Source: Hoeflea sp. (GTDB lineage Bacteria > Pseudomonadota > Alphaproteobacteria > Rhizobiales > Rhizobiaceae). From it: 64,000 bases of DNA. Under the pieces are notes generated by a model. That model did no database searches. It was given only the letters and a program-made list of their open reading frames with translations, and was not told the origin of the DNA. The DNA lies in assembly GCF_019084245.1 (NCBI RefSeq), contig NZ_JAHRFE010000022.1. One strand, 5' to 3'. The position numbers and the translations under genes were made by a program. Shown piece after piece: positions 1,672 through 17,765 of the stretch; the stretch's first letter is position 1, and each line of letters starts with the position of its first letter.

Positions 1672-2346
1672 TCAAAGCACCGGCACGAAACGGCGCTCCG
1701 GATCAGCCCGCTTTCCGAGAAAATCAGGCCAATAGCCGACGACTCTTTGGGTGATCTCGGCTTCTGTGATGGTGGTTAGCAGCAATTGGCCGCCGACCGT
1801 TGTTGCGGCAGTGCCAGGATAGTTCGGCATATCCGCCGGCTTCCGAAACGCTTGAAAGAAGCGATGCCCCACATTCTCAAGCCCACATTCAAGCGATTGA
1901 TATGAAAGCCCGGCCGCAAGTTCCTCGCCATTGCCGCTGATCCACAGATCTTCCAACTCCTGCAGCACCATCGGCGCCATACCGAAATCGTTATCTCCGG
2001 TGGCAACGGCGAAGTTGCGGAAACCGAAACGCTTGCCCCACCCTGATATCAAGAAGAGTGACGTTGGCGGTAGCGGACAGGCTCGCCGTGACTTTAGAAG
2101 CGCCAGCCGCAGCTTATCTATCGCGTCGTCAAAATCCATCTCTGCGCACATGTTCGGGATAACGTATTCCGCCATGAAATTGCTTACCGGGATCGTTTCG
2201 CCACGCACCGTCACTGCGGCCCGCAAGCCCGGCAGCAGGATCGTCTTTGGCGACAGGCCAATCATGACGCCAGCCATATCGAGGATGAGAGTGTCGGACA
2301 AAATCTCAATTCGGTCGTCCATAACTAGGGAAATGGCGGCACTCAC
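1672..2346 (-). CDS. putative Ntn-hydrolase, proteasome-beta/HslV-like fold
   Basis: after Met removal S1, D17, K33, G48; C-terminal VGG..TTIT; homologous to 57828-58514; GTG start overlaps upstream TGA. Confidence 0.6.
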   Translation of the reverse strand: MSAAISLVMDDRIEILSDTLILDMAGVMIGLSPKTILLPGLRAAVTVRGETIPVSNFMAEYVIPNMCAEMDFDDAIDKLRLALLKSRRACPLPPTSLFLISGWGKRFGFRNFAVATGDNDFGMAPMVLQELEDLWISGNGEELAAGLSYQSLECGLENVGHRFFQAFRKPADMPNYPGTAATTVGGQLLLTTITEAEITQRVVGYWPDFLGKRADPERRFVPVL

Positions 2347-2722: not shown

Positions 2723-3025
2723 ATGACTGAAGATGCGATTGAAGATCCGCTTGCAGACTCTGTCGGGTCTGACGGGGTGCGAACTTGGCAGATATTTTTA
2801 CGGAATGGAGACAAGATTGAATTTCGCGCGGCGTGGAATACCAATCAACAATTTTCGCCGGGAGTCTTTGTGTCGCATGTTGCTACCTGTCATCGGACTG
2901 GCGGTCGACCCGATATTGGGATAAACGTAGTTTATACATTTCCGAAGACTAATAACTCTGACGTCGGAGCGATTCGACTGGCGATCGATGTTATAGAGGT
3001 CGCAGCCGTCGTTCAGATTCCGTAG
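2723..3025 (+). CDS. hypothetical protein (AT-richer moron)
   Basis: ORF with AT-rich upstream region containing TATAAT; opposite strand to the head operon. Confidence 0.5.
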   Translation: MTEDAIEDPLADSVGSDGVRTWQIFLRNGDKIEFRAAWNTNQQFSPGVFVSHVATCHRTGGRPDIGINVVYTFPKTNNSDVGAIRLAIDVIEVAAVVQIP

Positions 3026-3145: not shown

Positions 3146-4051
3146 TTGTCTAAATGCGCTTGGATCATCGCAATTGCGCTTGGACTGAATATCTGCCTAG
3201 CAAATCTTGCACGCGCTCAGCCAGTAGACGAAAACGCCCGCGGCGGCGATCGTGCCACTGAACGCCAGCAACAACCAAGCGCAGACATCAATCCAGCACC
3301 TCCGCCGTCCATTCAGGACCTGCTCCAGCGCATTGCCGGCGCGCTGGAGGCTGGGAATGACAAGCCAGAGTCCGATGCCGAAAGGGAGCGCGCTAAGCGC
3401 GATCTTTCTGCTCAAGAAGCCATGGCCAAGTGGGCCAAATGGATGCTGATCGCCACCAGTGCTAGCGTCATCATTGGCGGCTTTAGCCTGTTTCTTATTT
3501 GGCGCACCGTAATTTACGCCAAACAAGCCGCCGTGGCCGCTCACGCTACGGTCAATGTCAGCAAAGAAATTGGCGTCGCGCAAACGCGCTCCTATATTTC
3601 CGTAATCGGAGGGGGGTTTATTCTCAATAAAGGTGGGTATTCCGGCTTCATTGACGTGAGCAATAGCGGACATTCCCCGGCGGTTAATCCGAAGATTGAG
3701 GTCACAATAAATCTGGCGGAGGCATGGTTCGGCGGCGCAACCATGGGGGCCAAACCGCCGCATCGCGATATCCAGCCTTTCGTTGGTAAGAAGGATAAAA
3801 TTCAACCCGGCGAAACCTCGCGTTTCTATTTCTTTTGGACAAAGGAACAAATCGCCGAAATTTTTGATCTCCTCAACCATGGCCGAAATACCGTTGTCCT
3901 CACCTGCAAGCTGAGTTCCGAAACCATCTATCCCAAGGTGGTTGATAAGGGGGCTTGGCAACTTACTAACTACCCCGGCTTCGTTAGGGTTACTGATGAA
4001 AGTCGTGTGGCTGAGGGAGTCTTGTACCCCCGCCAAAGCCAAAAGAAGTAA
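3146..4051 (+). CDS. predicted exported/membrane-anchored hypothetical protein (moron)
   Basis: signal-like N-terminus, internal TM segment WMLIATSASVIIGGFSLFLIW. Confidence 0.6.
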   Translation: MSKCAWIIAIALGLNICLANLARAQPVDENARGGDRATERQQQPSADINPAPPPSIQDLLQRIAGALEAGNDKPESDAERERAKRDLSAQEAMAKWAKWMLIATSASVIIGGFSLFLIWRTVIYAKQAAVAAHATVNVSKEIGVAQTRSYISVIGGGFILNKGGYSGFIDVSNSGHSPAVNPKIEVTINLAEAWFGGATMGAKPPHRDIQPFVGKKDKIQPGETSRFYFFWTKEQIAEIFDLLNHGRNTVVLTCKLSSETIYPKVVDKGAWQLTNYPGFVRVTDESRVAEGVLYPRQSQKK

Positions 4052-4135
4052 TGCGGCCCCCGCCGCGCGAAGTCTCATGGTTCCGGCCTACTCAGCGCTG
4101 GACAATTCATGGTGATTTCCTGTTTTAGAGCGCGG

Positions 4136-5791
4136 TTAGACCGCGAACATGCTCAAATCGCTCAGGTCCGCGTCCTCATATGAAGACCGGCCCGACGCGC
4201 CCTGCGCGGCCCGCCCTATCGAGATAATCGCCGCAACGGCCGGATCTATCTTGTCAATCGAGCGCTCTTTCAGCGGGCGCCTGTTGCCGCTGGCGTCGGT
4301 ATGCAGGACAACGTTTCCGATCGCCCAGCGCAGCATTGGATTGCCGCCATGGACTAGCCGGCGCTCGAACATGAGCGCCTCAAAGTCAATGACGGGCCGC
4401 GCGAAGGTGGCGATGTTTTGCGGAAACTCGGCAACCGGCAGGCCATCGTCCTCAAGGGATTTCATGATGTCCTGCGCATGCCACCTATCGAAGGCGATTT
4501 CCTCGACCTGAAACCGTTCGGCCAGGTCGCGGATATAGTCCTCGATCATGCCAAGATCGATCGTATCGCCGGGCGTCACAGTCAAGAACCCCTGATCGCG
4601 CCATAGGGCATAGGGGACGTTATCCGTTCGCCGGCGCACCGCACCCTCAGGACAAAAGGTCTGGACGTGCAACGCGTAGCTGTCATCGGCTAGCGGTACC
4701 GCCAACGATACGGCCGCCAAGTCGATGCGCTTGGCCAGGTCGACTCCGATCCATGCGCGCCGCCCCTCGATTGCGGTAAGGTCCAGTTCACCGGAGTTTT
4801 CATCCCAGACGTCTAACGACCATTCGGGGTTAGCCGCGCCATCAAGCCAGACATTCAAATGAAGTTGGCGGAACATTTCCCGATCCGCCGGCCTGTGTTC
4901 GGCTTCGCGCACCATCTGGCGCATGCCGTCGACGTCGGGATAAGGCGGATCGCACGAAAGGCCAGGGTTGACCCGATGCCAAACCGCCTCATCGCGCCAG
5001 TCTTCCTCGGGGTCAGCTTCGAACAGGATCGGGAGAAACGCATTGTCTTCGATCTGTCCGGTGGCGACCGCCTTGGCATATTTGTACATTTCATGGGCAA
5101 TGTTTTCGTGCCCGATTCCGGCCGTGGTGGTGACAACCAAAAGGCTGCCAGGCGTCTTAACAAGGCCGGTTTTGATGGCGTCCCAAAGATCGCGCTTTTT
5201 CCATGCGTGAAGTTCATCGACCAGCGCAAAAACCGGAGTGCGCCCATGAGCCGTTGCCGCGTCGGCTGACATCGCACGATAGAACGCGCCGGATCGCTTG
5301 TGTGCAATCCGGTTTTTCGTGTCTTGAACTTGAAAGGCTTCGGCCAGCCGCGGATGCGCGCCAATTACGCCTTTCATTTCCTCCAAGGCTATGCGCGCCT
5401 GATCGCGGTCAACCGCTGCGCTAACCACCTGCGAACCCGGAATCCGTTCCGGCCCCAAGTGCAGCATTGCCAGCGCGGCGCCCAGCGTGGTCTTGCGGTT
5501 GCCGCGTGGGATTAGTGCGAAAACGGTCTTGATCCGTCGCGTGCCGTCTGGCTTTGTGTCGCCATACACCTTGCGGAGAATGCGCTCCTGCCAGCGGTCC
5601 AATTGAAAGGCCCGCTTAGTGGCCGTGCTCTTTGGATGGCGCAACGCTTTTAGAAACTTGACGGCGCGTTCGCCTTTTCCGTGCGGATCAGGAATGATGG
5701 AGTCGTCAAAAACCCACGCGGGATAGGCAGAAACATTTCTGTCCGAAATGTTTCCTTCAGATATCGCCAAGGGCGTCGTCGTCATCGTCAC
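4136..5791 (-). CDS. terL: phage terminase large subunit (Terminase_1 type)
   Basis: Walker A-like PRGNRKTT, Walker B LVDELHAW, nuclease GVDLA and IDPAVA motifs. Confidence 0.95.
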   Translation of the reverse strand: MTMTTTPLAISEGNISDRNVSAYPAWVFDDSIIPDPHGKGERAVKFLKALRHPKSTATKRAFQLDRWQERILRKVYGDTKPDGTRRIKTVFALIPRGNRKTTLGAALAMLHLGPERIPGSQVVSAAVDRDQARIALEEMKGVIGAHPRLAEAFQVQDTKNRIAHKRSGAFYRAMSADAATAHGRTPVFALVDELHAWKKRDLWDAIKTGLVKTPGSLLVVTTTAGIGHENIAHEMYKYAKAVATGQIEDNAFLPILFEADPEEDWRDEAVWHRVNPGLSCDPPYPDVDGMRQMVREAEHRPADREMFRQLHLNVWLDGAANPEWSLDVWDENSGELDLTAIEGRRAWIGVDLAKRIDLAAVSLAVPLADDSYALHVQTFCPEGAVRRRTDNVPYALWRDQGFLTVTPGDTIDLGMIEDYIRDLAERFQVEEIAFDRWHAQDIMKSLEDDGLPVAEFPQNIATFARPVIDFEALMFERRLVHGGNPMLRWAIGNVVLHTDASGNRRPLKERSIDKIDPAVAAIISIGRAAQGASGRSSYEDADLSDLSMFAV

Positions 5792-6164
5792 CAGGCGCGC
5801 CCCCTTTGTTCTTTGTTCGGCTTGCAGGCGTCAGACCTAGCTCCGCGGCTAGCCGGCGGGCGGCCTCGATCGCCTCTTTAAGGATGGTTGTTTCAGGCCG
5901 GCGCTTAAGGTCGCCGCTTACCGAAACCATTGTCAGCCCTTCGGCTTGCAGGATCGCTTCGGCCTCCCGCTTGCGCGCAACGCAAAGGCAATAGTCCTCG
6001 ACCGTCCCCAATTCGTGCGCGGCAATTTTCCGATCGGCGACTAGCTGCGGAACCACGCGCGCCCATTCGGCGCGGCCGTGCGGTGGCAACCAACGCGGCG
6101 CCGGCGGCGCTTTTGATAGCGCCCCGTCAAGCGAGTTGATTTCCGGTTTCCTGCCCCTGGCCAT
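5757..6164 (-). CDS. terS: phage terminase small subunit (P27 family)
   Basis: MARGRKP start, PPAPRWL, LGLTPASR motifs. Confidence 0.9.
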   Translation of the reverse strand: MARGRKPEINSLDGALSKAPPAPRWLPPHGRAEWARVVPQLVADRKIAAHELGTVEDYCLCVARKREAEAILQAEGLTMVSVSGDLKRRPETTILKEAIEAARRLAAELGLTPASRTKNKGGAPGDDDDDALGDI

Positions 6165-6166
6165 GG

Positions 6167-6745
6167 CTATTCCCAATCGTAAGAGCGGAAATTGTCGAGC
6201 GTCGATTCCGCACCATGTGGAACGCTCATCATGGAAACATCCGAAACGGATTCGCGGTTCTCGAAATAGCTTGACGCGATCTGCAGGATCGCCTCACGAA
6301 TTGCCGCCGGCACGTCGGCCGCAGTGGCGCCATAGCCTGCGACATACCGAACGCGGACGGCATTTATCGTGGCCTTCGGCGTTGGCCACCCGCTTGCCGC
6401 TGGCGCAATCCAGCCCGGCACGCTGTATGTGTCGACCTCATAATCCGTGCCAGCGGTCAAGGTGACTTCAAGGCCGGTATCCGGTGCGACGTATTTGACG
6501 GACGTGACGGACTGCAGCCGCCCAGCGGGCAGCTTAAGAGGGCCGCGCGGGAACGTGTCTAGCACCAACTCGAACTCAGTCGATATGAACGGAAACCCTA
6601 GATAGCGCTCCGCATATTCGCGGGCCGCTGTGATCTTCTTCTCAATGCCAGCGTCTTCATCGGCGTATTCGATGCGCGCGTGACTCTTAAATTCAGCGAC
6701 CGTCACCGGCTCGACGGCCGGCGCGGTTATCGTGATGACAGCCAA
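6167..6745 (-). CDS. head-tail connector (gp6-like, long phiE125 gp8 type)
   Basis: EPVTVAEFKSHARI, VPAAIREAILQ...YFENRE motifs. Confidence 0.85.
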   Translation of the reverse strand: MAVITITAPAVEPVTVAEFKSHARIEYADEDAGIEKKITAAREYAERYLGFPFISTEFELVLDTFPRGPLKLPAGRLQSVTSVKYVAPDTGLEVTLTAGTDYEVDTYSVPGWIAPAASGWPTPKATINAVRVRYVAGYGATAADVPAAIREAILQIASSYFENRESVSDVSMMSVPHGAESTLDNFRSYDWE

Positions 6746-6764
6746 GGCGGCCTCCTAGGTTAAA

Positions 6765-6845
6765 ATTCCTATTTAGGATGAATACAGAACGTCTCTACCC
6801 CGCTGGTCCAGGCCAAACGGCGAGAAATTGACGACCGCCCCCCGG
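6765..6845 (-). other. probable cos/packaging region
   Basis: minus strand GGGGGGCGGTCGTCAATTT...GACCAGCGGGG...CCTAAATAGG, resembles sequences between HNH and terS of HK97-like phages (pattern inference). Confidence 0.45.
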
Positions 6846-6875
6846 TTGTGCGAAGCTTTGAGAATGGGAAACGAG

Positions 6876-7319
6876 ATGAAAGTATTTCTTCGTTTGGTTC
6901 TCGTGCTGTTCGCGAGCACGATAGCGAACGTGTCCCTGGCTTCGGACAAGGAATGTCTTTCTCCCCACACAAAATATGATGTGTGCAAAGCGGCTAGAGA
7001 GATCCAAGAATCGATGGCGCCAATGCTTCCCATGACAATGAATGCAAACATGACGTTGACTTCGGTGGCTGCTATTGGCCCTATATTTGCCTATTACGTT
7101 AGATGGACGCAAACATGGCCTGAGATCGAAGCTGCCATGCAAAACGCTGGCACGACAAAAGCCGCGCTTCTACAGATGATGGATGCACAAACAAACGCGA
7201 TTATTTGCGGGCAGGAAACTACTGCTGCATTCATCGGTCTCGGAGGAACGGTCCAGTACCACTACATCACATCTGATGCAGTCCCCGTCACCACTACAGT
7301 AGTGTCTTCGTGTCCCTGA
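6876..7319 (+). CDS. secreted protein, possibly PA3611/AspS pilotin-like fold (moron)
   Basis: signal peptide MKVFLRLVLVLFASTIANVSLA; LP...T..SV...G...Y; C...GG..QYHY...C pattern; lower GC. Confidence 0.55.
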   Translation: MKVFLRLVLVLFASTIANVSLASDKECLSPHTKYDVCKAAREIQESMAPMLPMTMNANMTLTSVAAIGPIFAYYVRWTQTWPEIEAAMQNAGTTKAALLQMMDAQTNAIICGQETTAAFIGLGGTVQYHYITSDAVPVTTTVVSSCP

Positions 7320-7324
7320 ATTAC

Positions 7325-7687
7325 TCAGCACTGTAGACGCCCGAACGCACCCTCACTCTTGATCGCCTTGCGCCTGTTGCACGTGTCGTGAAATGGCTGC
7401 CAATTCGATCGGCGCCAAAACAGTTTCATGTCGCCTTTCGGCGCCTCTATGTGATCCACCATGTTGGCAGCACGACCGCAGCCACAAGCGCATAGCGGGG
7501 TGCCAAGCGCTGCCAGCCATGCCTTGGACTCCTTGGCCCACTTGCCATCATAGCCGCGCTGTGCGGCGCTCCCACGCGCCAGGTCACTAGCCTTCTGGCG
7601 TGCCTCTGCATTGCGCTGCTGACAGTCGCATCGCGTGCCCTTCGGCACTGCATAGCCGCACGGACAAATGACATTCGGCATGTTCAA
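7325..7687 (-). CDS. HNH endonuclease (terminase-associated)
   Basis: RGYDGKW, CACGCG, VDHI, N...H..CN..K. Confidence 0.9.
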   Translation of the reverse strand: MNMPNVICPCGYAVPKGTRCDCQQRNAEARQKASDLARGSAAQRGYDGKWAKESKAWLAALGTPLCACGCGRAANMVDHIEAPKGDMKLFWRRSNWQPFHDTCNRRKAIKSEGAFGRLQC

Positions 7688-7876
7688 TTCCTCTTTATGA
7701 AAGGGGCGACCATCATCCCGATGGCCGCCCCAGTGCGGTTCGGCAGAACCGCTTTTGCGCGTCGGACATCACCCCGACACTTGGCCACCCATCAGCACGC
7801 TATGACCTTCAGAAGGTGGCGGCTCGTGCTGACAGTTAAGGATTGACCCAACCCCAAGGATACGCCGCCGGATTGG

Positions 7877-8263
7877 TTAGGATACAGGTCGCGAAGCGGC
7901 ATGGCCCTTGACCACGACGGCGCCGGCCGCAATGGACGTGCCGCTGTTCTTTGTGATCACGGTCCGGATATATCGTTTGTTGCCAATGTAAGACTGTTTG
8001 TAGACCGTGCTCGCCGCAAGGGCTGCAGGCAGCGTGCCGATCAAGTCGGCCGCGGCAACGTCGGCAAAGTCTTCCGACGTTGTGGTGTCGGATTCCTGCA
8101 GTTTCGCAGTGAAGTTGCCGCTGGATACGATGGCGCCGGTGTTGACGACTAGGGCAGCAGAGTCGAAGCCCTTAAGGTCGATGGCGGCGCTGGTGTCGGT
8201 TGCGGCAAGCACCTGCGGCACAACGGCCGCCACGACGCCAATATTATGCGAAAGATCGCGCAT
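7877..8263 (-). CDS. conserved head-associated protein following the capsid gene
   Basis: MRDLSHNI...IDLKGFDSA...KLQESDTT; near-identical motifs in the paralogue at 63707. Confidence 0.8.
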   Translation of the reverse strand: MRDLSHNIGVVAAVVPQVLAATDTSAAIDLKGFDSAALVVNTGAIVSSGNFTAKLQESDTTTSEDFADVAAADLIGTLPAALAASTVYKQSYIGNKRYIRTVITKNSGTSIAAGAVVVKGHAASRPVS

Positions 8264-8332
8264 GGGTATTCCTTTCAAAAGGGGAAGCGGGCCGCCGAAG
8301 CGGCCCTATAGGATGTTCCGTATGGAAACGGC

Positions 8333-9475
8333 TTACGATTCAGCAACGCGAAGCTTGCGCAGCGCCTCAGCCATGACCAGATCCGCACCAACGCGGCGAC
8401 GCGCATGGAACCGGACCTTTCCGGTGGTGGCCTGAGTGTAAGGATCTCGCAGCATCGACATCGCCACGCGGTCATAGACGCGGTAAGCGCGGTTGACGTC
8501 GCCGAACAGGATCGGAAATTCCCCGGCGCCGATGTCATCCATATCGACGGCTTCGACAATCGGGCGACCAAGCAGCGTTTCAGGCTGGCCAGCCTGATAG
8601 CTCGGCTGCCAAAGGTAATTGTTGGTTGTGTCCTTCAGCTTGCGAATTGCTGCAATGGTCGTGCCGTTGGCCATCCACACGCCCTTATTCCGGTAGTAGG
8701 CGGGTAGGTCATACATGAGCGTGATCAAGCTATCGGCGGTGATCAGCGTTGCGTGACCGCTCGCGACATCGGTAACGCCAGCCGCGGCCATTATGCCGGT
8801 TGGTTTTTTCACGCCATTGCCGGAAACTAGCGCAACACCTTCAAGCCGGCCGAATTCTTCCGCCAAATCGCTGGCCACTTCGGACTCGACGTTTACCGCG
8901 GCGTCTTCGAGGAGCTGCACAGAAACATCGACATAAGCCGCCATTTCGTGAACCGGAATTTCGACCTGGCCATAAGCGGATTCGGTTTCGGTGCGCGTCT
9001 CGGTTTCGCCAACCCAATTTGCGGTCGGCGTCCCGGTGCGCTTTGGCAGGATAACCGAACCCCGCGACGTGGAACCAACGCGGGCCGCCTGCCGGACAGG
9101 CGAGAATTCAACAATGCCCTTTAAGATTTCCGTGGAAAGCTCAGCGGGAGCCAGATAGCCGCCGCGGGTGTCATCGGCAACGACCAGCGATTTTACTTCG
9201 TCGGCTGGCATACGTTCGGCGCCATATCGCAGGAAGCCTTCAAAGGCTTTGCGCTCCGGTGTCGGCTCATTGTCATTGGCTGCCTTGCCGATGATAGCCG
9301 GCCGCGCCAGCTTCGTTTCAAGTTCGGCAATGCGACCGGCCAAGCCGTTGTCGTTGGCGGCCTTAGCCTTCACCTCAGCGACGGATTCGGCAAGCGCGGC
9401 AAGCGCGGCCTTGACCTCATCAACCGGGTTGTCAGTGGCGGATTTGGTTTCGAGTTTATGAGCAAGATTGCGCAT
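8333..9475 (-). CDS. major capsid protein, HK97 fold
   Basis: GGYLAP, WVGE, YLWQP, LLGRP, FGD motifs; N-terminal coiled delta domain containing two AANDN. Confidence 0.95.
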   Translation of the reverse strand: MRNLAHKLETKSATDNPVDEVKAALAALAESVAEVKAKAANDNGLAGRIAELETKLARPAIIGKAANDNEPTPERKAFEGFLRYGAERMPADEVKSLVVADDTRGGYLAPAELSTEILKGIVEFSPVRQAARVGSTSRGSVILPKRTGTPTANWVGETETRTETESAYGQVEIPVHEMAAYVDVSVQLLEDAAVNVESEVASDLAEEFGRLEGVALVSGNGVKKPTGIMAAAGVTDVASGHATLITADSLITLMYDLPAYYRNKGVWMANGTTIAAIRKLKDTTNNYLWQPSYQAGQPETLLGRPIVEAVDMDDIGAGEFPILFGDVNRAYRVYDRVAMSMLRDPYTQATTGKVRFHARRRVGADLVMAEALRKLRVAES

Positions 9476-10012
9476 CTAGATTCCCTTAATTGTCTGATTG
9501 GTTTTGTTGATCGCCGCGACCAATGCGGCGAAGTCCGTGCCGCTATTTTTGACGGACGTGACGGTCGCGGATTCGTTCATCGGAAACGTCACAATTGACG
9601 CCTCCCGAAGTTCGATTTCGTGGAGAAGGCGGGCGCCTTGTTTGCGGTCCATTTCGTCGCGGATTGTGCGGAATCCGATGGAGATTCCATCAACCGCCTC
9701 AGCCTTCATGAAGGCGTAAACCTCGCGGCCCTTGACTGTATCAAGGAGGATTCTGCCCTCGGCTCGCAGGCCAAAGGCGTCCTCTTCAAATTTGGTCCAT
9801 ACGCCAATCGGCTCCGTCGTGTCGTGCTGCCACAACATCTTGACCTTGCGCGCCGGGTACTTCTGCAGGCTGCTTTTGAACGCGCCAGGCATAACGATAT
9901 CGCCGCCGCGGTCTTTGACTCCGAACACACTGGCATAACCAGAGAACGTGCCGTCTTCTGCGATCGCCTTGATATCAAGCTCAATCGCGGCGCCCTGTGT
10001 GGTGGTGGTCAT
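9476..10012 (-). CDS. HK97-family prohead protease
   Basis: FSGYASVFG, MLWQHD, GISIGF, EASIVTFPMN. Confidence 0.95.
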   Translation of the reverse strand: MTTTTQGAAIELDIKAIAEDGTFSGYASVFGVKDRGGDIVMPGAFKSSLQKYPARKVKMLWQHDTTEPIGVWTKFEEDAFGLRAEGRILLDTVKGREVYAFMKAEAVDGISIGFRTIRDEMDRKQGARLLHEIELREASIVTFPMNESATVTSVKNSGTDFAALVAAINKTNQTIKGI

Positions 10013-11226
10013 GCCGCCGCCTCCGTTGTGGGTTGGTTGTCGTTGGCGGCCGATGGCGCCGTGTCGATCGCCGGATTTGCGAACACCTCGCCGCCGTCAC
10101 GTGGCGCCATGCCAAGCCAGTCGCGCGCTTCATTAGGATTGAGAACGCGCGCCGTGATCAATGTGCTGATAGCGGTTGCGCGTGCCGTTAGGTCGGCTTG
10201 GCTGGTGTCGTCGATGTCGAAGGCGAACCGAAGACCGGAGCGCCGCTCGGCTTCCGTCAGGAGCGCGCGATTGAACGCGCCTTCTAGAACGCGCAGCCAT
10301 GGGATAAGAGTGTATTGAATAAACTCTTTCGCCTGTTGCTCTGAGTTTCCCCAGGTGTTCCGCGTCAATTCGTACAGCATGCCAGGCGGAACCCGGAATG
10401 CCCGCGCGATTTCAAGGATCTGGAATGTTCGGCTAGCCGTAAACTCGCCGTCGACGGACGTAAGCGCCATCTGTTGATAGGTCGCGCCTTCATACAGGAC
10501 GGCCGTTTTGCCGGCGTTGGCCTTGCCGCTAAACGCGGCCTTCCAACCTGCCAACATGGCCTTGACGCCATCCGTACCTAGCTTGTTTGGCGTCTGAATA
10601 ACCCCGCCAGGTCGCGCGCCGTTTGTCCAAAGGCCATTGGCATAACCCTCCATAGCCGACGCCGTGGCGATGGCACTACGCGCCATTGTGAGGGGACATT
10701 TTGTAAACGGGCCGCGGACGTGAAGGATGTTCTTTGCCGATGCGAATTGCCCATTAATCCGATAGCGCGGCTCGCCTGTCTTGTCGTCATAATCAACGGC
10801 AATTATTCCGTCGCGGTAGATGATCAGTTCGCGCGGCTGGTCGTAGACCTTGGTTACATAGGCAATGCCGCCCTGGTCCTTCGTCAATGCGCCGGCGACC
10901 AGATCGCGGATAAGCTCAAAGCCCGATGTCCAGCCGTTCGCCTGTCCGGTAAGCAGCGCCAGCGCCGGGTGGTCGGATACGTCTTCCTCAGCGTCGCCAA
11001 CCTTGCGCTTTAGCTTGATGTCCAGGCTTGGCGCCGCCTCGGCAATGACGCGGACCGCAGCCGACACGGCAGGGACGGACAGCGCTTCCGCGTCGCTGAT
11101 TGTCGAGCCGGCAGGCACCGCGCCGAACAGTTCGAGAAGTTCGGCGGTTGGATCGCCAAGTGATTTTTGCTCGGCCACCACGGGCGGCGCCGCAACAGGC
11201 GTTTCTGATCTACTGAATGGCCACAT
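10009..11226 (-). CDS. HK97-family portal protein
   Basis: NGARPGG, EIARAFRVPP, TPNE-like LNPNEARDWLGM; ends AANDNQPTTEAAA. Confidence 0.95.
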   Translation of the reverse strand: MWPFSRSETPVAAPPVVAEQKSLGDPTAELLELFGAVPAGSTISDAEALSVPAVSAAVRVIAEAAPSLDIKLKRKVGDAEEDVSDHPALALLTGQANGWTSGFELIRDLVAGALTKDQGGIAYVTKVYDQPRELIIYRDGIIAVDYDDKTGEPRYRINGQFASAKNILHVRGPFTKCPLTMARSAIATASAMEGYANGLWTNGARPGGVIQTPNKLGTDGVKAMLAGWKAAFSGKANAGKTAVLYEGATYQQMALTSVDGEFTASRTFQILEIARAFRVPPGMLYELTRNTWGNSEQQAKEFIQYTLIPWLRVLEGAFNRALLTEAERRSGLRFAFDIDDTSQADLTARATAISTLITARVLNPNEARDWLGMAPRDGGEVFANPAIDTAPSAANDNQPTTEAAA

Positions 11227-11638
11227 CGGCAGCCTCCTTTACAATGGACTGCACAATGCTGCCGATTGGAATCACGATCGTCGAAACGTCGAATTTCAGC
11301 CTTGGCACGTCGCGGTCGGAAATGATGCGAGGCGAGCCGCATGCCCGCCTCATGACGGCCGGTGCGACTAGCAAGGCGTCTGCGGCCGGTGGCGTCCGCA
11401 GATTTTGAGCGGCGGCTGCGATAGCCATCAGCCATGAGCGGCCGGCTCGCTCCAGTTCAAAAGCAATGCGAAGCACTGCGACGTCTTGGATGCTAAACCA
11501 GCGCCTGCCCTTGCGCTTCTCCGAGAACAGGACGTCGAGGGTCCGATTGCGGCTGATGATGACGTCTAGATGTTTGCGTGAGAGGCCGACGATTCGCGCG
11601 GCCTCGGCGACTGTGAGGTCGCGCGTTGTCCAGGCCAT
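11210..11638 (-). CDS. MerR-like HTH protein at the head of the packaging operon
   Basis: LTVAEAARIVGLS...GRRWFSIQDV...ELERAG; GGAGG RBS. Confidence 0.7.
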   Translation of the reverse strand: MAWTTRDLTVAEAARIVGLSRKHLDVIISRNRTLDVLFSEKRKGRRWFSIQDVAVLRIAFELERAGRSWLMAIAAAAQNLRTPPAADALLVAPAVMRRACGSPRIISDRDVPRLKFDVSTIVIPIGSIVQSIVKEAADVAIQ

Positions 11639-11681
11639 TGGGCGGCCTCCTACGATGGTTAGAATTTCGAAAAGGCAAACA

Positions 11682-11729
11682 AAAAGCTGCGCCAGTGAAG
11701 CGTCTTGCGTTCAAACTGGCGCAGCTTTT
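11682..11729 (-). terminator. intrinsic terminator-like hairpin upstream of the head operon
   Basis: perfect 15-bp IR AAAAGCTGCGCCAGT / ACTGGCGCAGCTTTT followed on the minus strand by a U-rich run. Confidence 0.6.
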
Positions 11730-11867
11730 ACAACCTCGCACCGTTGCAGGACGCGCCGGCGCGGAGGCGATCAACCCACTGTGCGAAAGCGGGGATCAGT
11801 GAATTGATGGTGAGTAACCGCGCGCGGCCACCCACCGGCCGGCGCGGTGAAGCGCGCCGAAACAGAA

Positions 11868-11891
11868 AAAGGCCGCATCGCTGCGACCTTT
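11868..11891 (-). terminator. intrinsic terminator-like hairpin
   Basis: minus strand AAAGGTCGCA-GCGA-TGCGGCCTTT then TTCTGTTT; GNRA loop. Confidence 0.55.
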
Positions 11892-11934
11892 CCCATAAAT
11901 ACCCTTTGGCGTGCTGAAATGGGGTACCCCAACC

Positions 11935-12654
11935 CTATGCGGCCCTAACCCCGCGCCAATATCGATCAACGATTTCGAAGCCGTCAAATATGCGTGCCCG
12001 CGCCTCGCCCTTGGCGCCCTTCACGCCGGCGCCCAGCAGTTTGCCGATTTCTTCAAGGGTGAGTCCATCAAGAACAGACCATTCAAACGCGGCTAGTATT
12101 TTCGGAACAAAGCCCAGCCTTGCGCGGAGGTAGGCCAAGTCCCGTCCCGCATCGATTGCGGCCAGCAAAGGCCAGTCGCCATTCCATGCCTTGGGCACTG
12201 GCTTGGCGTTCTGGCGCGGGGCGATTGCCACGTTTGCCTTCCGTCCCTCCACCTGTTTCACACCCTTGTCGCGGCCGCTCTCGTCCTGATCGCGCAGGAG
12301 GTAAAGGTCATCAAGCGCCTGGCCTTTCAGTTCGGGCAGATGCGCCATGTCGCTCAACTCTCGATAGCTCTCCGCAAGGCGGAGACAGTAGGCGTTGCCT
12401 TCAGTCTTAAGAAGCTTGGCTAGAGGCCAATCCTGATTATCGTTCGCGGCCTGGCCGCTGTACTTGCTTGATCCGATGCGCGCCGCCTGCGAGGCCAGCC
12501 GCCATTCTAGTGTAGGTCCATCCTCGATCGCCTTGCCGCGGGCTGCGGGCTTTGTCCGCGGTGGTGTCCAGTCATTGGCCGGTTCAATGATTTTCTGCAG
12601 CGTATGTCGGCGATCGAAAACCGCCGGGTCCTTCAAATCCATGTCTTCACCCAT
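11935..12654 (-). CDS. putative late transcription regulator with C-terminal sigma-70 region-4-like HTH
   Basis: DGLTLEEIGKLLG HTH; position between replication and head genes; start 12654 or 12642 uncertain. Confidence 0.55.
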   Translation of the reverse strand: MGEDMDLKDPAVFDRRHTLQKIIEPANDWTPPRTKPAARGKAIEDGPTLEWRLASQAARIGSSKYSGQAANDNQDWPLAKLLKTEGNAYCLRLAESYRELSDMAHLPELKGQALDDLYLLRDQDESGRDKGVKQVEGRKANVAIAPRQNAKPVPKAWNGDWPLLAAIDAGRDLAYLRARLGFVPKILAAFEWSVLDGLTLEEIGKLLGAGVKGAKGEARARIFDGFEIVDRYWRGVRAA

Positions 12655-12870
12655 GGTTAGTGTGTCGTCGTACCGGACAGGCCGGCGGCTAGTGGGTGGC
12701 TGCATAAAAGGAAATAGTAATTTCGCTGAATTTCCGCCACTATATTTATGCGGCCAGCTCAACTAAAAGCGGCGCATATCCGAAATTCGTCAAGTCCTGC
12801 TGTCCAGCTTCTTGCAAACATCAAGAAGCTCATCCCCGCTACGGACCGCTTCACCACTTATCAGCCTCTA

Positions 12871-13002
12871 CACGTTACACGCGTTACATACACATACACT
12901 ACATGTATGTGTATGTAACGCTGTGGTGTAACGCTTGCAGGCTATGATGTGGCCGCGTGACAAGGCGTTACAATTGTAGTGTTATGTAACGCTCTGTAAC
13001 GC
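12871..13002. other. putative replication origin: 18-bp palindrome plus CGTTACA/TGTAACG repeats
   Basis: GCGTTACATACACATACA (12881-12898) / TGTATGTGTATGTAACGC (12904-12921); further (G)CGTTACA or TGTAACGC copies nearby. Confidence 0.65.
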
Positions 13003-14079
13003 TGGTCTAAGATCAAATTTCCCATCAATCTCGATTAAAAATTCATCTGTCAAAGCGGCCCTCTGCCTTGAAAACCTTTGTCTTTTCGTGCCGTCCTTTA
13101 TATCGCCAGCCGCTTCATAGACCGCGGCCCGCCACTGATCTTCAGTCACAGGCGCATTGTCGTTGGCGGCAATGGCGGCCCGTAGAACCGCAGTCGCCTC
13201 GCCAATCGCGCGGCTAGCCTTTTGTAGCGGTTTTGTCACGCTCGGCGGTGCGCAGGGCACAAGAACCGGCGCCGTGGTGGCAATGCCATCGTGCTCGGCG
13301 AGCGTGACCGTTTCCATTCGATAGGTGCGGATCGGCCTGTCTGCCGACTCGTTGTTCTTCATCACTTGAGCCGTTGAAACGTCCCGCTTGCGGGTGATGA
13401 GGATAGACATATCGGCAGCCGCCTGTAGTTGCCCGCCGCCGCGCATGCGCTTCTCTCCGCTCACTGGCGTGTGGTGCACCACGACCACGGTGCAGCCGAA
13501 CGTTTGGCCGTCATGAAAATTTCCGCACCGCGTCGCGTCCGTCAGATTAAACACGGCACGCGCCATCCCGTCGGGGCTGGAATCGCTTACACTCATCGCC
13601 GCCGCCAGGGTGTCAATAACGACAACTTCAATGCTGTCATCCAACATCAGGTTGGCGGTTCGCAAAATCGCGCGCAGGGCATACGGCTCGGCTAAATCAA
13701 TCGGTCCGTCATAAACCAATACGTTGTCAAACGGCTCGCCGTCGTGGTGTTTGATGAACGCATCAATGCGCCGCTCAACCTGGCCCGCGCGTTCGGCCGC
13801 GATGTAAAGCACGTTTGACCGATACGGCAACGTGCCGCCGTCAAAGTCCAGACCAGCCGCAAGCCGGCATGTAACGTCAACAGCAAAAACGGACTTTCCA
13901 GCCTCAGAGGGTCCGTAAATCACAAGCAAGTCATTAGTCGCAACCCAGCCAGGCATGCGCCAATACTTACGAATATCGCGGCCTTCGCGGTTGTGGATCT
14001 TCAAATTGCTGGATATTTCAGAATACAAATTTTGATCTGTATCAAAATCTGACCAGTCAACACTTGACAAATTTGTCAT
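12982..14079 (-). CDS. RepA-type (AAA_25, RecA-like) replicative helicase
   Basis: Walker A GPSEAGKS, Walker B VVIDTL, VVVHH, RGGGQL; no N-terminal primase domain evident. Confidence 0.85.
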   Translation of the reverse strand: MTNLSSVDWSDFDTDQNLYSEISSNLKIHNREGRDIRKYWRMPGWVATNDLLVIYGPSEAGKSVFAVDVTCRLAAGLDFDGGTLPYRSNVLYIAAERAGQVERRIDAFIKHHDGEPFDNVLVYDGPIDLAEPYALRAILRTANLMLDDSIEVVVIDTLAAAMSVSDSSPDGMARAVFNLTDATRCGNFHDGQTFGCTVVVVHHTPVSGEKRMRGGGQLQAAADMSILITRKRDVSTAQVMKNNESADRPIRTYRMETVTLAEHDGIATTAPVLVPCAPPSVTKPLQKASRAIGEATAVLRAAIAANDNAPVTEDQWRAAVYEAAGDIKDGTKRQRFSRQRAALTDEFLIEIDGKFDLRPALQSVT

Positions 14080-14150
14080 AATGCCCTATTCTCCTTTATG
14101 TGTAATTGAACAATTTGCCCGCCCTGATTTTTCAGTGGCGGGCTTTTTTT
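14064..14150 (+). ncRNA. predicted promoter plus ~50-nt counter-transcribed RNA upstream of the helicase gene
   Basis: TTGACA (14064-69)-N17-TATTCT (14087-92); hairpin 14117-14143 followed by T7 on the plus strand only. Confidence 0.55.
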
Positions 14151-14152
14151 GG

Positions 14153-14353
14153 TTAGTCGATAGTGTCTTCCGCTTCCCTGGCTGCGAACTCGGCCATATC
14201 TTTCCGCTTCGCCGGATCCTCGATCCGGATCATTCCTTGAATAACCATAAGCGAGGCAGCCCCGTCAGATGGAAGGCCCACGGCCATCAACTGGCTGATC
14301 GCATCCTCAATAATTTCGCGGGCCTTCTGATTCTTGTAGTCGCCGACCTTCAT
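14153..14353 (-). CDS. small hypothetical protein
   Basis: ATG overlaps the alpA TGA (ATGA); MKVGDYKNQKAREII... Confidence 0.65.
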   Translation of the reverse strand: MKVGDYKNQKAREIIEDAISQLMAVGLPSDGAASLMVIQGMIRIEDPAKRKDMAEFAAREAEDTID

Positions 14354-14562
14354 GCTGCAGCCCTCGCCTGTACCTTTGTCCTTATCCACGCCATCACCTC
14401 AGAGCGAACAAACGCCACTCGCCTGTCGCCAAGCTCTACGGCGATCGGGAATCTGCCTTCGGCGCGGTAGCGGTTGAGCATCGTGCGCGACATGCTGGTC
14501 ATGCGGCAGGCGTCGTTCAACGAAACCAGCGTTGGTTCATTATCGTTCGCGGCTTTTTCCAA
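14350..14562 (-). CDS. alpA: AlpA-family regulator/excisionase
   Basis: AAGGAA RBS plus TTG; SLNDACRMTSMSRTMLNRY...FP.....G.RRVAF..SEV..WI. Confidence 0.88.
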   Translation of the reverse strand: MEKAANDNEPTLVSLNDACRMTSMSRTMLNRYRAEGRFPIAVELGDRRVAFVRSEVMAWIRTKVQARAAA

Positions 14563-14710
14563 TTTAATTTCCTTCCGGGGTTGACAGGTTTGCAGGAAAT
14601 GGTAGATTGACATCAGTGCTTCAATTGGGCTATCTGTTGATTGCTTACATCAGAGATGCCAGTCTGAAATCTAGTTGCATCTTACAAAAATGTCAACATG
14701 GCCGCTTTGG

Positions 14711-15886
14711 CTATTGGCAGTAGTCTGCCCATTCGCCCATCAGAGCGCGCCGCCGCTCCAAAGCATCCGACCGGGCGTAAGACCTTTCAACCGCATCGCC
14801 AACCGCATGACAGAGCGCCGCTTCTGCTATTTCGCGGGGCGCATGCGCGACTTCGGTTGCCCAATCGCGGAAGGTCGATCGGAACCCGTGAACCGTATAG
14901 GCGGCCGCCCCTGCCGATTTCAGCGCCTTTGCCAAGCTCATATCGGAAAGCGGCTTTCCGGCGCGCACGCCGGGGAAAACAAGATCGTTTACTGATTGCG
15001 CTTTCATAACCTTTAGCACCGCCAAGGCCGCGCCTGACAGCGGCACGCGATGCGGCTTGCCTCCCTTCATCCTTATGGCCGGAATCGTCCAGACGGCCGA
15101 CTCTATGTCAATCTCCCCCCATGTCGCGCCTCGGGCTTCCCCACTGCGCGCCGCCGTCAATATGGTGAACTCCAGCGCCCGCGCCCCGACGCCCTTGATC
15201 TTTGCCAGCGACCGCATGAAGGTCGCCACATCTTCATGCGGCATAGATGCGTGATGACGGGCCGCGACAAGCGCGTTCGGCTTGTGCAGCACATGCTCAA
15301 GATTGCCCTTCCACGCGGCTGGATTGTCGCCGGTTCGGTGTCCATCGACGCGGCTCGCGTCCAGAACGCGCTCAATCGATTCCCGCAACTTTTCGGCGGT
15401 TTCCTGCTTCACACCCCAAAGCGGTTCCAAGACCTTTTTGATGTCCTGAATGTCAATGTCGCCGATCGGCCGCCCGCGTATCGCAGCGGCATGGTTATTG
15501 ATTGCGTTCCGCCATCGCGCCTCGGTTTTCGCGCCGCGCCATTTGCCAGCCTTGACGGCGCGGTCAATGAACTTGTCGGCATAGGCTCCAAACAGGACCA
15601 CGGCAGGCGTAGAAGCCTCGACTTCGCGCTTGTCGCGAATCGGATCGACTCCGGCCCGCACCATTGCACGCGCCTTCTGTGCCGCTTCCCGCGCATCTGC
15701 CAGACTAACAGAATGAAGCGGGCCTATGCCCATTTCACGCCGTCTGCCAAACAAGGTGTAGTTGAAGATCCAGTACCGGCCGGTGCCCTTTGTGACCAGC
15801 CACAGACCACCACCATCACGCAGCTTGAGCGCCTTGCTTGCCGCGATTCCTTTGACCGTCAGGACGTTTTTTGTATGGCTCCCCAT
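14711..15886 (-). CDS. int: P4-family tyrosine integrase
   Basis: arm-binding N-terminus DGGGLWL...REMGIG; catalytic TAARSGE, HGFR, RSY. Confidence 0.95.
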   Translation of the reverse strand: MGSHTKNVLTVKGIAASKALKLRDGGGLWLVTKGTGRYWIFNYTLFGRRREMGIGPLHSVSLADAREAAQKARAMVRAGVDPIRDKREVEASTPAVVLFGAYADKFIDRAVKAGKWRGAKTEARWRNAINNHAAAIRGRPIGDIDIQDIKKVLEPLWGVKQETAEKLRESIERVLDASRVDGHRTGDNPAAWKGNLEHVLHKPNALVAARHHASMPHEDVATFMRSLAKIKGVGARALEFTILTAARSGEARGATWGEIDIESAVWTIPAIRMKGGKPHRVPLSGAALAVLKVMKAQSVNDLVFPGVRAGKPLSDMSLAKALKSAGAAAYTVHGFRSTFRDWATEVAHAPREIAEAALCHAVGDAVERSYARSDALERRRALMGEWADYCQ

Positions 15887-16304: not shown

Positions 16305-17765
16305 ATGGCACGCGACACCACATTTGACACGGACGCAGCAATCGTCTGGTTCCGCAATGATTTGCGGGTCAGCGACAACGCCGCGTTGATGGCCGCAAGC
16401 GCGCACAGCGCCGTTGTTCCTGTCTTCATCCGTGAAACCAATTCCCCTGCCCGGCCGCTCGGCGCCGCGCGGACCTGGTGGCTGCACCATTCGCTCCTGC
16501 GGCTTGGCCAGAAGCTCGAAAGCCTCGGCGCGCCGCTGCTTCTGCTAAGCGGTGATCCTGCCCAAATCCTGCCGGACCTGGTCAAGGCCAGCGGCGCGTC
16601 AGCGGTCTACTGGAACCGGCGTTATGATCCGTCGCACAAGGAAGCCGATGCGGCGCTCAAGGCCGAGCTTCAGGCCGACGGGCTGCGTGCCGAAAGCTTC
16701 GCCGGCCAGTTGCTGCACGAACCGTTGCGGCTCCAGACCGGCGGCGGGACCTACTACAAGGTCTACAGCCCGTTCTGGCGGGCGATGGAGCCCGATATCG
16801 AAAAGCGCCCGCCCCTGCCCGCACCGCAGTCGCTCACGCCGCTGTCGTCGGCTCGAGAGCTTGCGTCCGAAGAGCTGGCGAGCTGGAAACTGCTGCCCGT
16901 CAACCCTGACTGGTCCGGCGGCTTGAGCGACGCCTGGACGCCAGGCGAAGACGGCGCCCAGGCGCGGCTCACCGATTTTCTCGAAAACAGGATGCAGGGC
17001 TATGCCGAGCGCCGCGACATTCCCGGCATGGACGCGACCTCGGGGCTGTCGCCGCATCTGGCGAGCGGCGAGATTACGCCAGCGCAGATCATCGACGCGC
17101 TCGGCAATGCCGACTCGGACGCCTCCTCATCCGACCGGAGCAAATTCCGCAAGGAAGTCGGCTGGCGCGAATTCTCCTGGCACCTGCTCGCCAATGAACC
17201 CGGCCTGGCGGACCGCAATCACAATTCCCGGTTCGATGCGTTTCCCTGGATCAACAATGAGAAGACGCTTCATGCCTGGCAGAAGGGCCTCACCGGATAC
17301 CCGATTGTCGACGCAGGCATGCGCGAACTCTGGCGCACCGGCTGGATGCACAACCGCGTCCGCATGGTCGCCGCCTCGTTCCTGACCAAGCATCTGATGA
17401 TCGACTGGCGCCAGGGAGAGGCCTGGTTCTGGGACACGCTCGTGGATGCCGACCCGGCCTCCAATGCCGCAAGTTGGCAATGGGTGGCGGGCTCCGGCGC
17501 GGACGCCGCCCCCTATTTCAGGATCTTCAACCCGATCCTGCAGGGCGAAAAATTCGACCCCGACGGCGACTATGTCCGCAAGAACGTGCCGGAACTGGCT
17601 GAAATGCCTGCCAAATATATCCACAAGCCATGGGAGGCGCCAGACAGCGTGCTTGAAGCCGCAGGCGTCCGCCTTGGCGAAACCTATCCCGAGCCTATTG
17701 TAGACCATCAGGCAGCGCGCCAGCGTGCGCTCGCCGCATACCAGCAGATCAAGGATGCCGCATGA
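16305..17765 (+). CDS. phrB: class I deoxyribodipyrimidine photolyase
   Basis: WFRNDLRV.DN.AL, SGLSPHL..GEI, WREF, TGYPIVDAGMRELW.TGWMHNR.RM. Confidence 0.95.
   Translation: MARDTTFDTDAAIVWFRNDLRVSDNAALMAASAHSAVVPVFIRETNSPARPLGAARTWWLHHSLLRLGQKLESLGAPLLLLSGDPAQILPDLVKASGASAVYWNRRYDPSHKEADAALKAELQADGLRAESFAGQLLHEPLRLQTGGGTYYKVYSPFWRAMEPDIEKRPPLPAPQSLTPLSSARELASEELASWKLLPVNPDWSGGLSDAWTPGEDGAQARLTDFLENRMQGYAERRDIPGMDATSGLSPHLASGEITPAQIIDALGNADSDASSSDRSKFRKEVGWREFSWHLLANEPGLADRNHNSRFDAFPWINNEKTLHAWQKGLTGYPIVDAGMRELWRTGWMHNRVRMVAASFLTKHLMIDWRQGEAWFWDTLVDADPASNAASWQWVAGSGADAAPYFRIFNPILQGEKFDPDGDYVRKNVPELAEMPAKYIHKPWEAPDSVLEAAGVRLGETYPEPIVDHQAARQRALAAYQQIKDAA

Follow-up and report, generated by a model that had tools for sequence, protein, structure and literature searches.

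The open reading frame (ORF) at positions 1672–2346 on the minus strand of the Hoeflea sp. stretch analyzed here (64,000 nucleotides in total, referred to as the window) is a genuine gene of the proteasome-like branch of the N-terminal nucleophile (Ntn) hydrolases, i.e., the branch of the 20S beta and HslV type. Its 224-aa product, referred to as the hydrolase, represents a family found in phage-derived elements, namely phages and phage satellites, of alphaproteobacteria. The commonest location of its genes is within phage tail modules, immediately behind the gene for the tape measure. The window gene is coupled to a short ORF for a hydrophobic polypeptide and lies in an element that looks like a phage satellite.

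Start codon, conserved residues and predicted fold

The ORF list and the sequence indicated a GTG start and a TGA stop for the hydrolase gene. The product begins with M-S-A, and its translation reads MSAAISLVMDDRIEILSDTL...SPKTIL...VRGETIP...TTVGGQLLLTTITEAEIT or, in a longer extract, MSAAISLVMDDRIEILSDTLILDMAGVMIGLSPKTILLPGLRAAVTVRGE...TTVGGQLLLTTITEAEIT...YWPDFLGKRADPERRFVPVL. Present in this translation are Ser2, Asp18, Lys34, Arg48-Gly49 and Gly185-Gly186, which correspond, when the initiator Met is not counted, to Ser1, Asp17, Lys33, Arg47-Gly48 and a GG strand late in the C-terminal part. The public gene call for the identical sequence (P0001) is 216 aa long from Met9 (window 2322–2346) and would remove the nucleophile; alternative shorter starts are also present for some RefSeq relatives. 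The GTG start and Ser at position 2 are well supported because homologues align from residue 1, because GTG and the stop of the preceding ORF share the sequence GTGA and because 10 RefSeq/GenBank relatives, all of which carry the name 'hypothetical protein', are deposited with exactly the inferred M-[ST] N-termini.

When 1.84 billion cluster representatives were scanned exhaustively with HMMER at E<=1e-3, 115 relatives of the hydrolase were obtained, almost all of 205–280 aa (approximately 220–260 aa for the family) and most of them aligning from residue 1. Conservation was counted in an alignment of 83 relatives (A1), in which Asp18, Lys34, Arg168 and Gly185 were invariant and position 2 was occupied by Ser in 45 sequences, by Thr in 37 and by Gly in one. 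Near-invariant residues were noted at Arg48 (69/83), Gly49 (76/83) and Gly186 (79/83) and, toward the C-terminus, at Trp206 (81/83), Asp208 (81/83) and Gly211 (78/83). A start of the form [MV]-[ST] was seen in 114 of 122 family representatives. A word-indexed homologue search returned only the protein itself when run with the protein and 14 proteins when run with the profile, while no match was obtained by tblastn of the hydrolase and two relatives against GenBank phages, by tblastn of the hydrolase against plasmids or by a single-protein search for related loci in genomes. The C-termini of the 122 representatives (P0002–P0123) showed features of their own, i.e., Ala-Ala at the end of 25 sequences, where an Ala frequency of 0.116 would predict approximately 1.6, and a basic tail of the form [MLT][SNT]RQQRRAxER in 19; the subgroup of the window protein ends in RKFVPV[LI].

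Similarity to the proteasome was seen when the A1 profile was compared with PDB sequences. This search gave 41 matches at E<=10, of which 38 were proteasome or HslV chains, the top matches being beta1i (PSMB9) with E 1.3e-3 and HslV with E 0.013. In a phmmer search of PDB sequences with the single protein, no match was found, and the Pfam proteasome-subunit model matched neither the hydrolase nor any of the 83 relatives at E<=1. The register of the profile matches placed position 2 on Thr1, D18 on D17, K34 on K33, G49 on G47 (with a one-residue insertion) and the GG pair on the GG of the known subunits, and the same register was obtained by hhalign of A1 against the mature beta1i sequence (probability 93%, 176 columns). 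On the minus strand of the window, the predicted N-terminal nucleophile Ser2, which aligns with Thr1 of mature beta1i and HslV, is encoded by AGT at 2341–2343, Asp18 (aligned to PSMB9 Asp17) by GAC at 2293–2295 and Lys34 (aligned to PSMB9 Lys33) by AAG at 2245–2247. The Gly47-type oxyanion position, shifted by one residue relative to 20S beta in the HMMER alignment to PSMB9, is Arg48-Gly49 at 2200–2205, and Gly185-Gly186, the first residues of the VGGxxxLTTIT strand that aligns with the GG of PSMB9, lie at 1789–1794. The PSMB9 alignments end before residues 206–211 (1714–1731), which form the family-specific C-terminal motif W-P-D-x-[IVL]-G.

An AlphaFold2 model built with A1 had a predicted local distance difference test score (pLDDT) of 93.6 and a predicted template modeling (TM) score of 0.90; a model built from the single sequence (pLDDT 31) was discarded. 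The predicted order of strands and helices was S1-S5, H1, H2, S6-S8, H3, H4 and S9-S11, with H1 at residues 51–67, H2 at 72–89 and an Ntn core that extends to residue 205 and is followed by a 19-aa tail. A Foldseek search of PDB with this model gave 829 matches at E<=1e-3, and the best 50 were all 20S subunits (best E 6.5e-8, TM scores 0.5–0.66, identity 10–17%). The initial annotation had proposed from the sequence a divergent Ser-nucleophile Ntn hydrolase of the proteasome superfamily, with Ser1, Asp17, Lys33, Gly48 and a C-terminal GG strand at the spacing given above, a reading that hung on an alpha-beta-beta-alpha sandwich fold and on conservation of S1, D17 and K33 among homologues. All five elements are in the translation, the sandwich of proteasome type is what the model predicts, and S/T1, D17 and K33 are conserved in 82/83, 83/83 and 83/83 sequences, respectively. 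With three independent lines in agreement, i.e., the profile search, hhalign and the modeled fold, the hydrolase almost certainly belongs to the proteasome-like family.

Spurious ORFs are many in high-G+C DNA and the public gene call has another start, but there is practically no chance that the ORF arose by accident or that its motif is a coincidence in an unrelated protein, given the 115 homologues of conserved length and motifs, the confident AlphaFold2 model, its Foldseek matches and the RefSeq proteins deposited with the same N-termini. One existing family label was rejected. The family phrog_13702, a model of 218 positions (a length like that of the hydrolase family) matched by 19 of the 83 members with a best E of 1.6e-9, is labeled 'terminase large subunit', whereas the true large terminase subunit (TerL) is encoded at 4136–5791 (E 4.5e-141) and the predicted fold of the hydrolase is that of an Ntn enzyme.

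Genomic position and proposed activity

Loci that contain family genes (designated by L-numbers) were taken from ten metagenome contexts and from searches with a degenerate DNA pattern based on the GG...LT...WPD.[IV]G motif. With this pattern, true loci numbered 17 in IMG/VR and 44 among the GTDB representative genomes; another 10 of the 54 pattern matches in genomes, which came from other phyla, were false and were discarded with a hidden Markov model. True genome matches with a class-level label were all alphaproteobacterial and included the genera Mesorhizobium, Rhizobium, Ensifer, Agrobacterium, Neorhizobium, Devosia, Methylobacterium and Sphingomonas, among others. Agrobacterium radiobacter DSM 30147, Rhizobium sp. 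CCGE 510 and Neorhizobium huautlense DSM 21817 are examples of carriers that can be cultured.

Gene context was tallied for 59 distinct family genes. A tape-measure homologue was located directly upstream of 26 of these, with a 4-nucleotide overlap of start and stop codons in 20 cases, and the C-termini of the upstream tape-measure proteins were often Gly-rich and hydrophobic. Of the other genes, three were coupled to a gene for a product of 400 aa or more, six were preceded by a paralogue of the same family, five (the window gene included) were coupled to a small hydrophobic ORF and six were coupled to something else. In L019 and L033, the hydrolase gene stands alone between the tape-measure gene and the tail-fiber gene, which comes next after it. 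The layout seen in the window, i.e., head and packaging genes, TerL and hydrolase, is repeated in L022, L031 and L051 (Methylobacterium soli). A search of the accessible literature found no link between tape-measure proteins and HslV, and the tape-measure-linked context of such a gene appears to be undescribed so far.

The small ORF upstream of the window gene encodes 71 aa at 2343–2558 on the minus strand and was recognized from its sequence, its hydropathy and homologous ORFs in the same coupled position. The sequence GGAGAA occurs just ahead of its ATG, and its TGA stop overlaps the GTG of the hydrolase gene by 4 nucleotides. The start of its product (…SYANA/E) resembles a signal peptide, and a hydrophobic body rich in Gly and Ala is followed by a basic tail. 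Homologous small ORFs occur in L005, L013 and L015, and all four products have in common a start like that of a signal peptide, an A-x-A site and the hydrophobic body rich in Gly and Ala; the basic tail is present in two of them (window and L015).

These features suggest how the hydrolase may work. Since Ser or Thr follows Met, methionine aminopeptidase would be expected to remove the initiator Met, and no propeptide would be needed, as in most of the proteasome-like homologues catalogued in 2021 (PMC8665760). The amino group and hydroxyl of Ser1 would then act as base and nucleophile in attack on an amide bond, with Lys33 and Asp17 as a proton relay and Gly47/48 as the oxyanion hole. Analysis of the conserved residues makes it probable that the hydrolase is an active peptidase. 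Its working partner would be the hydrophobic, Gly/Ala-rich polypeptide whose coding sequence directly precedes the hydrolase gene with a 4-nucleotide overlap, i.e., the C-terminus of the tape measure in phages and the separate 71-aa pre-protein in the satellite of the window. The role that we favor, as a guess, is trimming or maturation of this membrane-inserting segment while particles are assembled or DNA is delivered. For the explanation as a whole, an active Ser/Thr-1 peptidase acting on an upstream hydrophobic partner, we put the chances at about even. A broader proposal, which is speculative and in our estimate rather improbable, is that the peptidase regularly accompanies the tape measure, with translational coupling, in siphophage-like elements of alphaproteobacteria, either as a protease that matures the C-terminus or as a catalytic ring in place of the distal tail protein, that satellites captured it together with a detached hydrophobic segment of the tape measure and that it may read tags of the AANDN...AA type described below.

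Several observations weigh against this peptidase account or the assignment that underlies it. The hydrolase was not recognized by Pfam, NCBIfam or PADLOC, the HMMER link to the proteasome is borderline (E about 1e-3) and profiles of sub-families alone do not reach the proteasome in a search of PDB sequences. Because those profiles miss the proteasome and the single-sequence model was useless, the sequence link is thin, and the fold link is that of a predicted structure. Equivalents of Ser129, Asp166 and Ser169 of 20S beta appear not to be conserved, as read from A1; in this alignment, the junction of S8 and H3 contains no conserved Ser but A/G-G-P at positions 137–139, while the invariant Arg168 falls near the Asp166 region. 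Both Arg168 and the WPDxIG tail are family-specific features. In terms of gene order, 13 of the 59 genes were at a locus edge or had no recognizable coupled upstream gene, the elements of the window, L022, L031 and L051 contain no tape-measure gene, and neither the window nor any of the ten metagenome contexts for which gene calls had Pfam annotation showed an adjacent unfoldase gene. That the upstream hydrophobic polypeptide is the partner is a reading of synteny alone and is possible but somewhat doubtful, and the peptidase account in its entirety is a prediction from sequence, model and gene order.

Other arrangements of family genes were also noted. Small integrative islands (L013 at 3406–10669, L015, L024, L028, L073 and L080) contain a capsid gene, an S78 protease gene and a gene for this hydrolase. 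They often also hold a tape-measure homologue of 435–870 aa, which is absent from L013, while no tube, terminator or baseplate gene was recognized in them. Tandem paralogues, which could form hetero-oligomers, were present in eight loci (L005 at 6920–8543, L023, L024, L046, L050, L051, L053 and L087), with a small ORF between the two copies in L005 and L051. A subgroup outside the phage context (L003/L004 at 10001–10717; L008/L009 at 3605–4324) adjoins genes for an ABC transporter, an HlyD-type protein and an outer-membrane protein, i.e., genes of type I secretion. This subgroup has kept Thr2 and Asp18 but has Asn at the position of Lys33, and this loss of Lys33 outside the phage context suggests that the triad is under selection within it.

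Carrier element and AANDN motifs

The carrier of the hydrolase gene looks like a capsid-forming satellite similar to the phage-inducible chromosomal islands of the capsid-forming type (cfPICIs), for which a defining gene set has been described (PMC10085698). Matches to PHROGs and Pfam delimit the core of the element at 4136–15886 on the minus strand, and the whole of this set was found there. From 15886 down, all on the minus strand, the genes encode a tyrosine integrase, AlpA, an AAA_25 replication-type ATPase, a 275-aa ORF product and a helix-turn-helix protein, followed by the portal, an S78 prohead protease, the major capsid protein and a phrog_5707 protein and, down to 4136, by an HNH protein, a head-tail adaptor, the small terminase subunit (TerS) and TerL. 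The G+C content is 0.53–0.60 in the element versus approximately 0.63 in the host genes on its flank, the first of which is a photolyase-like ORF at 16305. No tested ORF in the approximately 16.7 kb of the element in view matched a tail family. The integrase end and the opposite end showed no attachment-site repeat, and the element's far end is past the contig break. Likeness to the cfPICIs thus extends to integrase, AlpA, replication ATPase, HNH, TerS, TerL, portal, protease, capsid and adaptor, with no tail gene in view. Holin genes, too, are absent from cfPICIs, whereas the 71-aa hydrophobic ORF of the window could be holin-like. Gene order differs, since TerS and TerL lie ahead of the portal gene in the E. 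coli cfPICI prototype and after the head genes here, as does the alphaproteobacterial host, and no helper phage, on which cfPICIs depend for induction and packaging, is known. For the window, the view of the initial annotation that the gene is carried by a phage satellite is therefore reasonable given the gene set and the lack of a tail gene in view, but the family is not specific to satellites.

A terminator-like hairpin at 4053–4066 on the minus strand, identified by a consensus scan as a pattern match only, lies just after the TerL gene, between the packaging operon and a cargo region. This lower-G+C stretch past the hairpin contains the 71-aa ORF, the hydrolase gene and an SRAP (YedK/HMCES-type) gene at 975–1613 on the minus strand (Pfam PF02586, E 1.7e-22), located 58 nucleotides downstream of the hydrolase gene on the same strand. 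The SRAP product starts with M-C, which provides the N-terminal Cys nucleophile of the SRAP family. The initial annotation had drawn attention to the SRAP gene as a neighboring enzyme with an N-terminal nucleophile. Adjacency in the window stands, but an SRAP gene was found beside hydrolase genes in just one other locus (L024 at 11270–11992, E 1.7e-77), where it is on the opposite strand, and for this reason a functional pairing was rejected; the SRAP gene is probably shared cargo.

Three plus-strand ORFs occur among the minus-strand genes of the element (3146–4051, 2723–3025 and 6828–7319). One encodes a 301-aa product with a signal-like start and no family match in the stretch of lowest G+C, and another a 163-aa signal-peptide protein (phrog_8772) between the HNH and adaptor genes. 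Two independent public contigs (L011 and L012) both end at almost the same place, approximately 850 bp beyond the left edge of the window, in sequence resembling a transposase C-terminus, which suggests that both assemblies were broken at the element's edge by a repeated insertion sequence.

Six copies of the peptide AANDN are encoded in the window, all of them in genes of the element, versus approximately 0.1 expected from shuffles. Peptide matches placed its codons on the minus strand at 9269–9280, 9347–9358, 10036–10047, 12436–12447, 13156–13167 and 14539–14550, i.e., in the capsid protein (twice), the portal C-terminus, the 275-aa ORF, the AAA_25 protein and AlpA, and selection at the protein level is indicated because the codons vary synonymously. 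The portal protein ends in AANDNQPTTEAAA, which resembles an SsrA tag of alphaproteobacteria (ANDN...AA). Elsewhere, a 377-aa protein near 3810 in L015 ends in AANDNKICLPAAA, and a tape-measure-sized protein of 705 aa near 2014 in L063, the gene of which is coupled to the hydrolase gene, ends in AANDNNLDLRRAA. Internal AANDN was noted in several tape-measure proteins, with a further site in L001 at 7182–7215. A literature search for AANDN motifs in phage proteins found nothing.

Alternative functions and comparison with known systems

Three other functions were weighed against that of a peptidase acting on an upstream hydrophobic partner. We consider it unlikely that the enzyme is a cell-wall hydrolase that cuts a stem-peptide amide of peptidoglycan, serving as a virion-associated lysin at entry where its gene is next to that of the tape measure and, in the satellite, with the small ORF as a holin-like partner, in release. 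The small ORFs are holin-like in size (66–71 aa) and hydrophobic segments and, in the window and L015, in their basic C-terminus, their overlap with the enzyme gene is of the kind often seen in holin-endolysin pairs, and the family gene is found in tail modules between tape measure and tail fiber; wall-degrading domains are frequent in tape-measure and tail-tip proteins. However, the Foldseek and profile matches were all peptide-degrading proteasome subunits, no PHROG lysis family was matched and the signal-peptide-like A-x-A start of the small ORF is atypical of holins. We know of no endolysin or tail lysin with a proteasome fold.

A role as accessory cargo is likewise improbable. In this case, the protease would be directed against proteins of the host, a helper phage or a rival element in defence, counter-defence or interference, and it might recognize AANDN...AA sequences that resemble SsrA tags. 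The location of the gene in the lower-G+C region past the terminator-like site, beside the unrelated cargo gene for SRAP, would suit such a role, since satellites often hold defence genes in such positions (PMC10085698), and so would the excess of AANDN in proteins of the element and its presence in proteins of related loci. The connection of AANDN with the enzyme is, however, one of co-occurrence only, as seen in elements with the gene; PADLOC gave no match, and the dominant site in tail modules, translationally coupled to the tape measure, is unlike that of a moron.

Very unlikely, in our estimate, is a function other than that of a protease, either as a structural tail-tip ring where the distal tail protein would be or as a ligase or transpeptidase like connectase. 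Consistent with the former are the location immediately behind the tape-measure gene and a length of 220–260 aa, which is like that of distal tail proteins. Rings of the HslV type are hexameric and connectase shows that the fold can ligate (PMC8665760), and the tandem paralogues in eight loci could suggest hetero-oligomers. Near-invariant S/T1, D17 and K33 would not be expected of a purely structural role, the loss of Lys33 next to type I secretion genes suggests that the triad is selected in the phage context, and the gene is also present in elements that have no tail.

Processing of the tape measure, if true, would explain a maturation step for which, to our knowledge, the protease has not been identified in most siphophages. 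If the tape measure is not processed, the hydrolase would still be a compact Ser/Thr-1 enzyme with the fold that yielded the useful ligase connectase. In either case, two kinds of annotation are corrected, i.e., the label 'terminase large subunit' in PHROGs and gene calls with a start past the nucleophile.

Among known enzymes, HslV resembles the hydrolase in its single-domain proteasome-beta fold, its Met-Thr/Ser start without a propeptide and its Asp17, Lys33 and Gly oxyanion positions, and HslV chains aligned from residue 1 were among the best PDB profile matches. HslV works with the AAA+ unfoldase HslU, the gene of which is usually its neighbor. Unlike HslV, the hydrolase is phage-borne, has no adjacent gene for an HslU-type unfoldase in the contexts specified above and is approximately 50 aa longer than the HslV chains in PDB (174–184 aa), with an insertion before the GG strand and the WPDxIG tail. 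The NCBIfam HslV model matched one of the 83 members, with E 0.09. Identity as HslV proper was rejected on the grounds of the missing HslU neighbor, the missed HslV model and the extra segments. The 20S beta subunit beta1i (PSMB9) was the best match by profile, hhalign and fold, with Thr1, Asp17, Lys33, Gly47 and GG in register. Compared with 20S beta, the hydrolase shows an identity of 10–17%, is missed by the Pfam proteasome model and lacks an alpha-type partner and a propeptide, and in its family Ser is as common as Thr at the nucleophile position.

Homologues of the proteasome in phages were already catalogued in 2021, and thus the kind of protein is known while the present family is at least unannotated. 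Fuchs, Alva and Lupas distinguished 22 groups of proteasome-like homologues, among which PPH and AAH, with Thr1/Ser1-Asp17-Lys33, occur in tailed phages or prophages, DPH and RPC are confined to Proteobacteria and AAH is most abundant in Actinobacteria (PMC8665760). The tape-measure protein is not mentioned in that paper. PPH is approximately 140 aa long, PPH and RPC lack helix H2 and RPC has an extra C-terminal domain (PMC8665760), whereas the hydrolase has 224 aa, both H1 and H2 in the predicted structure and only a 19-aa tail past the Ntn core; identity with PPH or RPC was therefore rejected. AAH and DPH were compared by description only. AAH differs in distribution, the true DNA-pattern matches of the hydrolase family being all alphaproteobacterial, and none of the accessions of ten members is WP_035979212 (AAH) or WP_074989469.1 (DPH). 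While phage relatives of the proteasome have been listed before, none with a known job, the hydrolase family offers a concrete handle in its fixed place by the tape-measure gene, its conserved small hydrophobic partner and its copies in culturable strains of Agrobacterium, Rhizobium, Neorhizobium and Methylobacterium.

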